A stretch of DNA of 64,000 bases from Sphyrna mokarran (taxonomy: Eukaryota), in assembly GCA_024679065.1 (NCBI GenBank), contig JAGIQG010000005.1, positions 124,868,001 through 124,932,000 on the forward strand. The letters run 5' to 3'. The translations under genes were made by a program, and so were the position numbers. The notes beneath the pieces are model-generated. The model was given only the letters and a program-made list of their open reading frames with translations, had not been told where the DNA came from and made no database searches. Of this stretch, positions 1 through 57,880 are shown piece by piece. The number at the start of each line of letters is the position of its first letter. The first letter of the stretch is position 1.

Positions 1-390
1 ATCGGTTTTCTCCTCTTTTAAGACCTTCCTTAAAACCATCATTTCTGAACAAGCTTTTGGTTATCTCTCATCATATCTCCTTATATGACTCAGTGGCAAA
101 CTTTGTTTTATAACATTGTGTAAGTTGCCTTGGATCTACATTTACTGCATTAGAGACACTATATAAATGCAAGTTGTTATTGTTGAACATGTTAAGTCAC
201 ATAATGCTCCCAGGACATTGTGTACACATATGGTTGATGATCTGGGAATTGTTGCCACCAAGAGCAGATGGCAACACATTTGCACAAATATTTGCAGATC
301 CACACCATGAATCATTGAAGATTATTTTGAACAAACAAAAGTAAAATTCTGGACAAGATGCACTTCATCTTGTTTTGTTTCATTTTCCAG

Positions 391-581
391 GCACAATTTC
401 TATCGACTCCGGTCACAAAGAACTCTGTGCACTTCCCAAAGGGACGTCAGTTCATATCGCTTTTGCCGAAGGAAAGAATGTTATTGATTTCCTCAAGAAA
501 AATCCTTTCACATACGTCTTTATGAAAATCCCAACTGAACTTATCTTAGAAGACACAGAAATATTACAGAGTTCACACTAA
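391..581 (+). CDS. Putative terminal coding exon of an unidentified gene nested antisense in a pcnx2 intron
   Basis: Strong acceptor tcttgttttgtttcattttccag|GC, stop-free to TAA at 579-581, globular-looking peptide, five CpGs, non-repetitive; ATTAAA near 646 and AATAAA near 1008. Confidence 0.55.
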
Positions 582-1034
582 ACATAAGACCCTAATCTGA
601 GACGTCATTTGGCTGTACAAAAATATTATCTTGTTTCTGTGGAAAATTAAATGGACATCAGCTTGTCCTCTTACCTAAAGCTATAGATAATAGTGAATGT
701 AACAAAATTAGATCCATAGAGTTGGCAAGAATGTCACATACAGCTTGTAGCAACACATAAGAAATGACAGGCACTAGTTCCCAATAATAGCATACATATC
801 TCTGTTAGGCATATCTAGTGAGCTATTATCTAAGACATATATAGTTCCATCTTGGCATTTCCCCAATTCTTTCTGCACTGAGCTGTTTAATAACCTCAAA
901 GGTAATAAGCAGTCAGAATCAGGGCATACATTTTTAAATGATCCTTTTGCTCAATAGTAGCACTCTCAAACCCATAATCAGCTGATTTATAGACAAACAT
1001 GATTCCAAATAAAGACTGAAATTCTCACAATATA

Positions 1035-1494: not shown

Positions 1495-57880
<56,386 letters not shown>

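Follow-up and report, generated by a model that had tools for sequence, protein, structure and literature searches.

An exon-like, CpG-retaining stretch antisense within an intron of pcnx2 in the shark Sphyrna mokarran

An exon-like stretch in a pcnx2 intron

The DNA analysed here, hereafter the window, is a stretch of 64,000 nucleotides from Sphyrna mokarran (GCA_024679065.1, contig JAGIQG010000005.1, positions 124,868,001 to 124,932,000 of the forward strand), and positions refer to it unless another locus is named. It is crossed by the minus-strand gene pcnx2, which a tblastn search with pecanex-like protein 2 resolves into 32 pieces, extending from window position 57,880 to a point 119,833 bases beyond the left window edge. 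The exon at about 1495-1666 shows 95% identity to a shark protein named pecanex-like protein 2, and the next one is found 4,564 bases left of the window; the intron between them, measured from 1493, is 6.06 kb long. Since pcnx2 lies on the minus strand and its next exon falls beyond the left window edge, the plus-strand stretch described in Table 1 is intronic and antisense, that is, in the position of a nested antisense gene, and the initial annotation was right in stating that pcnx2 continues to the left of 1495. NTPCR exons (L015:2079-3650) are found on the plus strand, tail to tail with pcnx2, an arrangement that we take to agree with the synteny of PCNX2. A role of the stretch as an alternative last exon of this neighbour was rejected, since NTPCR has its own last exon about 136 kb away. 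At a distance of about 141 kb from the left window edge, there is also a CpG island. Within the window, a strong minus-strand acceptor followed by a 300-codon open frame, reading from 41666 leftwards, probably marks a large pcnx2 exon missing from the reference protein P0007.

Table 1. Sequence features in and around the exon-like stretch (window positions)
Feature	Position	Strand	Basis or remark
Stop-free stretch of 76 codons, same frame, cut off by TAA 342-344	114..344	+	no CpG, not coding-like
Acceptor-like site, pyrimidine tract, AG 389-390	357..390	+	33-nt AG-free zone; 10.8 bits
Stop-free frame, phase 1, candidate terminal exon (P0001)	391..581	+	62 whole codons to TAA 579-581
CpG-retaining patch, 7 CpGs, observed/expected about 0.9	404..604	.	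CpG count
GACGTCA, agreeing with the 8-base CRE palindrome in 7 bases	443..449	+	motif scan; post hoc, weak
Second GACGTCA, outside the open frame	601..607	+	motif scan
ATTAAA, possible poly(A) signal	646..651	+	64 nt past the stop
AATAAA, possible poly(A) signal	1008..1013	+	hexamer scan
Host pcnx2 exon, right of the intron	1495..1666 (ends from AG/GT; tblastn match 1493-1684)	-	protein identity

The acceptor, the frame with its stop, the hexamers and the intronic antisense place are confirmed as real. In particular, a strong plus-strand acceptor at 390/391, a stop-free frame to the TAA at 581 and hexamers at about 646 and 1008 had all been claimed from the first reading of the sequence, and each was found where it had been described, with the peptide as given; the first residue of the latter, G, is one that we infer, as phase 1 leaves two bases of its codon after the AG. 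When a hand-set matrix is used, 13 of the 4014 plus-strand AGs of the window score as high as this acceptor, as do 3 of the 32 pcnx2 acceptors, and the two hexamers are the sole ones of their kind in 1-1500. Strong acceptors (at least 10 bits) followed by at least 55 open codons occur 12 times on the plus strand in the locus of 214 kb. Half (50%) of all 430-nt stretches contain a poly(A) hexamer, so that these two traits alone are ordinary.

Coding potential and partner exons

Both strands of 784 kb of DNA contain 216 acceptor-plus-frame configurations, 83 of which are repeat-free, corresponding to about 7 per 64 kb. Among these 83, values as high as those of 391-581 are seen in 4 for the G1-G2 asymmetry, in 14 for the CpG count and in 3 for the share of D/E/K residues, and 7 have a hexamer at most 100 nt past the stop. 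Only one configuration combines all four traits, and it is 391-581 itself, the cut-offs having been set post hoc at its own values. In a comparison with 304 repeat-free 62-codon frames, the G1-G2 asymmetry is matched by 4, the CpG density by 2 and the amino-acid score by 70.

Explicit coding models give a graded picture. With a simpler codon model, 35% of 744 background frames score at least as high as the frame at 391-581, and with a second model 21 of 304 do. A coding score cross-validated on low-GC3 exons is equalled by 10 of 455 background frames, with a local likelihood ratio of about 4; according to which family is held out, the number becomes 6, 13 or 43 of 455. Moreover, the phase-1 frame is the best of the three plus-strand frames under the coding model and falls within the range of real exons. 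The frame is thus coding-like, but modestly.

Other ways of reading the same DNA were considered and set aside. A 44-codon phase-0 frame and a 31-codon phase-2 frame, the latter with four CpGs in Arg codons, obtain lower scores and are without homolog. A broken gene of 150 codons, read through the TAA at 342, was rejected as well, its upstream part being not coding-like and the whole having neither family nor fold. Protein-looking frames are found elsewhere in the region. A 65-codon plus-strand frame at L011:8389-8586, equally protein-looking, antisense and adjoining a pcnx2 exon, lacks a strong acceptor and is probably a decayed repeat; it serves as an example of a look-alike. Coding-like frames at about 25300-29400 (minus) and 35300 (plus) of the window resemble decayed retrotransposon pol, and the other top-scoring background frames look like remnants of mobile elements.

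A terminal exon calls for partners, and the 150 kb left of the window were scanned for them. A simple exon finder, which recovers pcnx2 exons and one NTPCR exon, has among its 45 best candidates no plus-strand one that lies 11 kb or less from the acceptor. The search for initial exons in 136 kb yielded one weak candidate of the leader type, an ATG followed by a hydrophobic run with a coding score of -5.4, and nothing else convincing. Finally, a 27-nt micro-exon candidate of phase 1-1 is located at L002:9390-9416, 974 nt upstream; its donor is strong (9.7), its acceptor weak (5.3), and equally good candidates within 1 kb are obtained for 119 of 1272 null positions and phases (9%).

Copy number, relatives and family assignment

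DNA and protein searches of the genome, which could miss old diverged copies, return a single match to the stretch, namely itself, and no copy of 179-1204 is present in 733 kb of fetched DNA. An origin from a transposon or repeat finds no support in further genome copies, very old ones excepted, and none of 11 frames reaches the Pfam cut-off. The initial annotation had recognised no repeat here, in line with the single copy and with the lack of a mobile-element domain.

The peptide matches nothing in Pfam, PDB sequences, NCBIfam or PHROGs, and no homolog is found in the own-genome protein search or in a set of 5.8 billion proteins (34-111 and 112-2000 aa). The 1.84 billion representative proteins likewise hold no homolog apart from three microbial matches, rejected since their scores are summed over repeats. 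In the Atlas, the best values of 0.83 and 0.86 are below the lead threshold, and the recognition value of 2003 is below 2300, a value reached by 91 of 100 known-family proteins. The protein libraries include some shark proteins with uncalibrated coverage, and a fast-evolving piece of 63 residues could be missed in them. At the DNA level, 170 kb including the matching pcnx1 and pcnx3 introns contain no nested paralog, the viral, prokaryote and phage collections give no match, and Rfam reports nothing at gathering level across the stretch. Three metagenome loci with matches of 17-25 residues were discarded: in L094 the match is in the wrong frame, opposite a longer bacterial-type ORF, in L095 it falls in AT-rich short frames, and L096 has the same match. 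In the accessible literature, no report was found that ties PCNX2 to the TNF superfamily in sharks or to intron-nested genes, and none on the synteny of PCNXL2.

The jelly-roll idea advanced in the initial annotation, that is, a likeness of the peptide to the final strands of TNF or C1q domains, could be examined against the families of the same genome, and it found no support. The likeness of the peptide to the TNF superfamily (PF00229) and C1q (PF00386) is superficial and consists in hydrophobic runs of short length and, close to the C-terminus, a Lys-Gly turn; in contrast, it scores like shuffled sequence and neither family is nearby. Specifically, the genome holds 28 TNF matches, none of them on this contig; of its 57 C1q matches, the ones that share the contig are 67 Mb away. 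A TNF profile was made from 25 of the 28 loci, with the last 60 residues of each; on it the peptide obtains -1.3 bits, with 498 of 1000 shuffles as high, whereas the held-out divergent ligand L040 obtains 14.0 bits. The C1q profiles include the 30 best among the 57 loci, and here 212 and 149 of 1000 shuffles are as high as the peptide, against 0 of 1000 for the held-out control; divergent positive controls, in other words, pass. Pairwise comparison with the 28 TNF-domain loci gives a best p of 0.006 (L041), about 0.17 after correction and hence not significant. An 11-residue likeness to L040 has an E of 0.03, and a weak match in the same locus at 656-712 lies past the stop of that TNF gene and was dismissed as chance. 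As for the remainder of a TNF protein or a type II membrane anchor upstream, the contig has no TNF match, and the 136 kb scanned offer only the weak hydrophobic candidate mentioned above. Single-sequence structure models, with pLDDT of 44 and 39, have no PDB match and are too poor for a judgement of the fold. The accessible parts of PMC11762692 and PMC7674686 do not mention PCNX, and the supplement of the former, which includes a synteny table, contains neither PCNX nor NTPCR, MAP3K21 or SIPA1L2.

Other families fared no better. For the beta-trefoil families IL-1 (PF00340) and FGF (PF00167) Pfam gives no match to the peptide, and their 8 and 47 genome matches are all outside this contig. A supposed resemblance to OX40L-type ligands, to IL-18, to AID/APOBEC, to galectin or to beta-grasp domains finds no support in Pfam or PDB. 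The ligand L040 corresponds to a divergent TNF-family exon on the minus strand (L040:1306-1695; G000:C1548, about 69.233 Mb), with an intact frame of 129 codons of which Pfam sees the first third alone (E 0.031), its tail being the one recognised with 14 bits by the own-genome profile; it is located about 0.5 Mb from three other TNF loci. On the contig of the window, at G000:C1104:57.76-58.01 Mb, six C1q-domain genes are arranged in tandem, and every one of them consists of one frame with a length of about 600-635 codons.

CpG retention and competing readings

The initial annotation counted five CpGs in a CpG-poor background. The background is indeed poor, the flanks 179-390 and 611-1030 having no CpG where 7 and 12 are expected; the count needs correction, since six CpGs fall in 391-581 (404, 410, 445, 458, 467 and 515) and a seventh at 603, past the stop. 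The observed/expected ratio of the patch is to be compared with a regional average of 0.24. The patch starts 13 nt past the acceptor, and six of its seven CpGs are inside the frame. Five of the six CpGs of 391-581 span codon positions 3|1 (p about 0.05 for five of six in one phase), where a C to T change is silent. The CpG:TpG ratio at 3|1 is 5:5 in the frame against 19:147 in pcnx2 exons (p 0.005), and against 68:442 in 25 TNF and C1q exons of the same genome, picked by hand with GC3 under 0.45 (p 0.007). As most of these CpGs are silent, and resident low-GC3 exons lose such CpGs, protein constraint in that frame is no explanation for them, and CpG retention does not support an exon in the way first proposed. 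Low methylation, selection at the level of single bases or a recent arrival would instead explain the kept CpGs.

Two of the seven CpGs are part of the motif GACGTCA, which we read as a near-complete CRE. This motif has 11 sites in 784 kb, two of them here, 158 nt apart. For GACGTC, 0.12 pairs this close are expected, a post hoc and weak indication, as pairs are also seen for most CpG palindromes. The patch resembles a known class, that of small regulatory elements in introns which retain CpGs and carry CRE sites, in its length of about 200 bases, its single copy, its observed/expected ratio and its two motifs; it differs from them in being known from sequence alone, with a motif pair noticed post hoc.

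We favour, at a probability of about two in five, a non-coding CpG-retaining patch of about 200 bases on which acceptor, frame and hexamer are coincidental; a small CpG-rich element without coding function, resembling an exon by chance, thus appears slightly more likely than a new gene. In such a patch of the pcnx2 intron, the acceptor-like site, the 62-codon frame and the poly(A) hexamer would coincide by chance, and the CpGs would survive through lack of methylation or base-level selection, as in a small enhancer; the two CRE motifs may be bound by a putative CREB/ATF-type factor, which is our likeliest guess, and the plus strand would make no protein. With about 7 configurations per 64 kb, about 2% of which pass the coding test and at most half of which have a hexamer, one comparable look-alike should turn up in every few tens to hundreds of windows. 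By a rough estimate, to be taken as a soft prior, a terminal exon that is orphan, nested and antisense and also combines these traits should be less frequent, and the base-rate sum would place look-alikes well ahead. The opposite reading takes the stretch for a genuine coding exon, the last one of a gene that is nested antisense in pcnx2, has escaped annotation and either evolves fast or is restricted to a lineage. It keeps a substantial minority share of our confidence, at about one in three, because our crude coding models may score a true exon too low. Such an exon would be spliced in phase 1, possibly from L002:9390-9416, end at the TAA at 581 and be polyadenylated after the ATTAAA at 646, contributing to a small protein of no recognised family. 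The strength of the acceptor, the best-of-three frame, the G1-G2 and CpG values, the combination of all four traits and a micro-exon candidate in phase speak for it, whereas the lack of a homolog in any library, in the own genome or at the pcnx1 and pcnx3 loci, the lack of a convincing further exon, start or hydrophobic leader upstream, and the silent CpG excess speak against it. In its most specific form, the last exon of an undescribed shark gene joined through that micro-exon and without relative among the 1.84 billion proteins, we give it nearly the same share.

Three further explanations carry less weight. A coding relic rather than a working gene, either a youngish insertion of about 220 bases, foreign or mobile and not depleted in CpG, or what is left of a lost gene, would account for the sharp CpG edges, the silent CpGs kept and a coding-like periodicity without partner exons, and would be in keeping with the nature that we presume for other top background frames; no parent is found in the genome or in the viral, prokaryote or phage collections, and there is neither a poly(A) tail nor a clear flanking duplication; we consider a relic improbable. 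Less probable still is the terminal exon of a non-coding antisense RNA, in which acceptor and poly(A) signal would be used and the frame be incidental: the strong acceptor and the nearby hexamer suit it, but the codon periodicity would be left unexplained. Very little probability, finally, attaches to a jelly-roll gene, a divergent member of the TNF or C1q family that would end in this exon, for which the L041 pairwise value and the short likeness to L040 are outweighed by profile scores like those of shuffles, by the distance of both families and by the synteny supplement.

Nesting itself is ordinary. According to the accessible part of PMC11694760, mammals have many nested genes: in humans, 17% of the genes act as hosts, and a mouse ortholog exists for 15.6% of the nested ones, so that poor conservation would suit a nested gene here. 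In the same part of that source, an enrichment for protein-coding genes is given for the hosts and not for the genes nested in them, a point in favour of an antisense RNA. The stretch resembles the vertebrate antisense intron-nested genes covered there in falling wholly within an intron of a host that is long and has many exons, in its antisense orientation and in its acceptor, stop and hexamer; it differs in consisting of one exon-like piece and a weak micro-exon candidate, both seen at the level of DNA sequence. If the gene is real, it would encode a new vertebrate orphan protein, overlooked by homology-based annotation of cartilaginous fishes. A TNF-like ligand would mean a further lineage in an immune family that has been studied well, but the tests argue against it. 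The favoured non-coding patch would amount at most to one small candidate enhancer.

Other sites in the DNA examined deserve mention. The neighbouring pcnx2 intron contains, in a repeat-masked stretch, a near-perfect hairpin (L002:4413-4494; G000:C1104:124862413-124862494) with weak Rfam microRNA-precursor matches, the best of which (E 0.0017, 34 bits) is far below the gathering score of 80. In the same intron, a purine-rich, minisatellite-like region (L002:5245-6060) has stop-free frames of 105-193 codons on both strands. Moreover, the randomly fetched stretch L077 carries on its minus strand a cysteine-rich exon, which resembles the IGFBP-type module of the CCN family.
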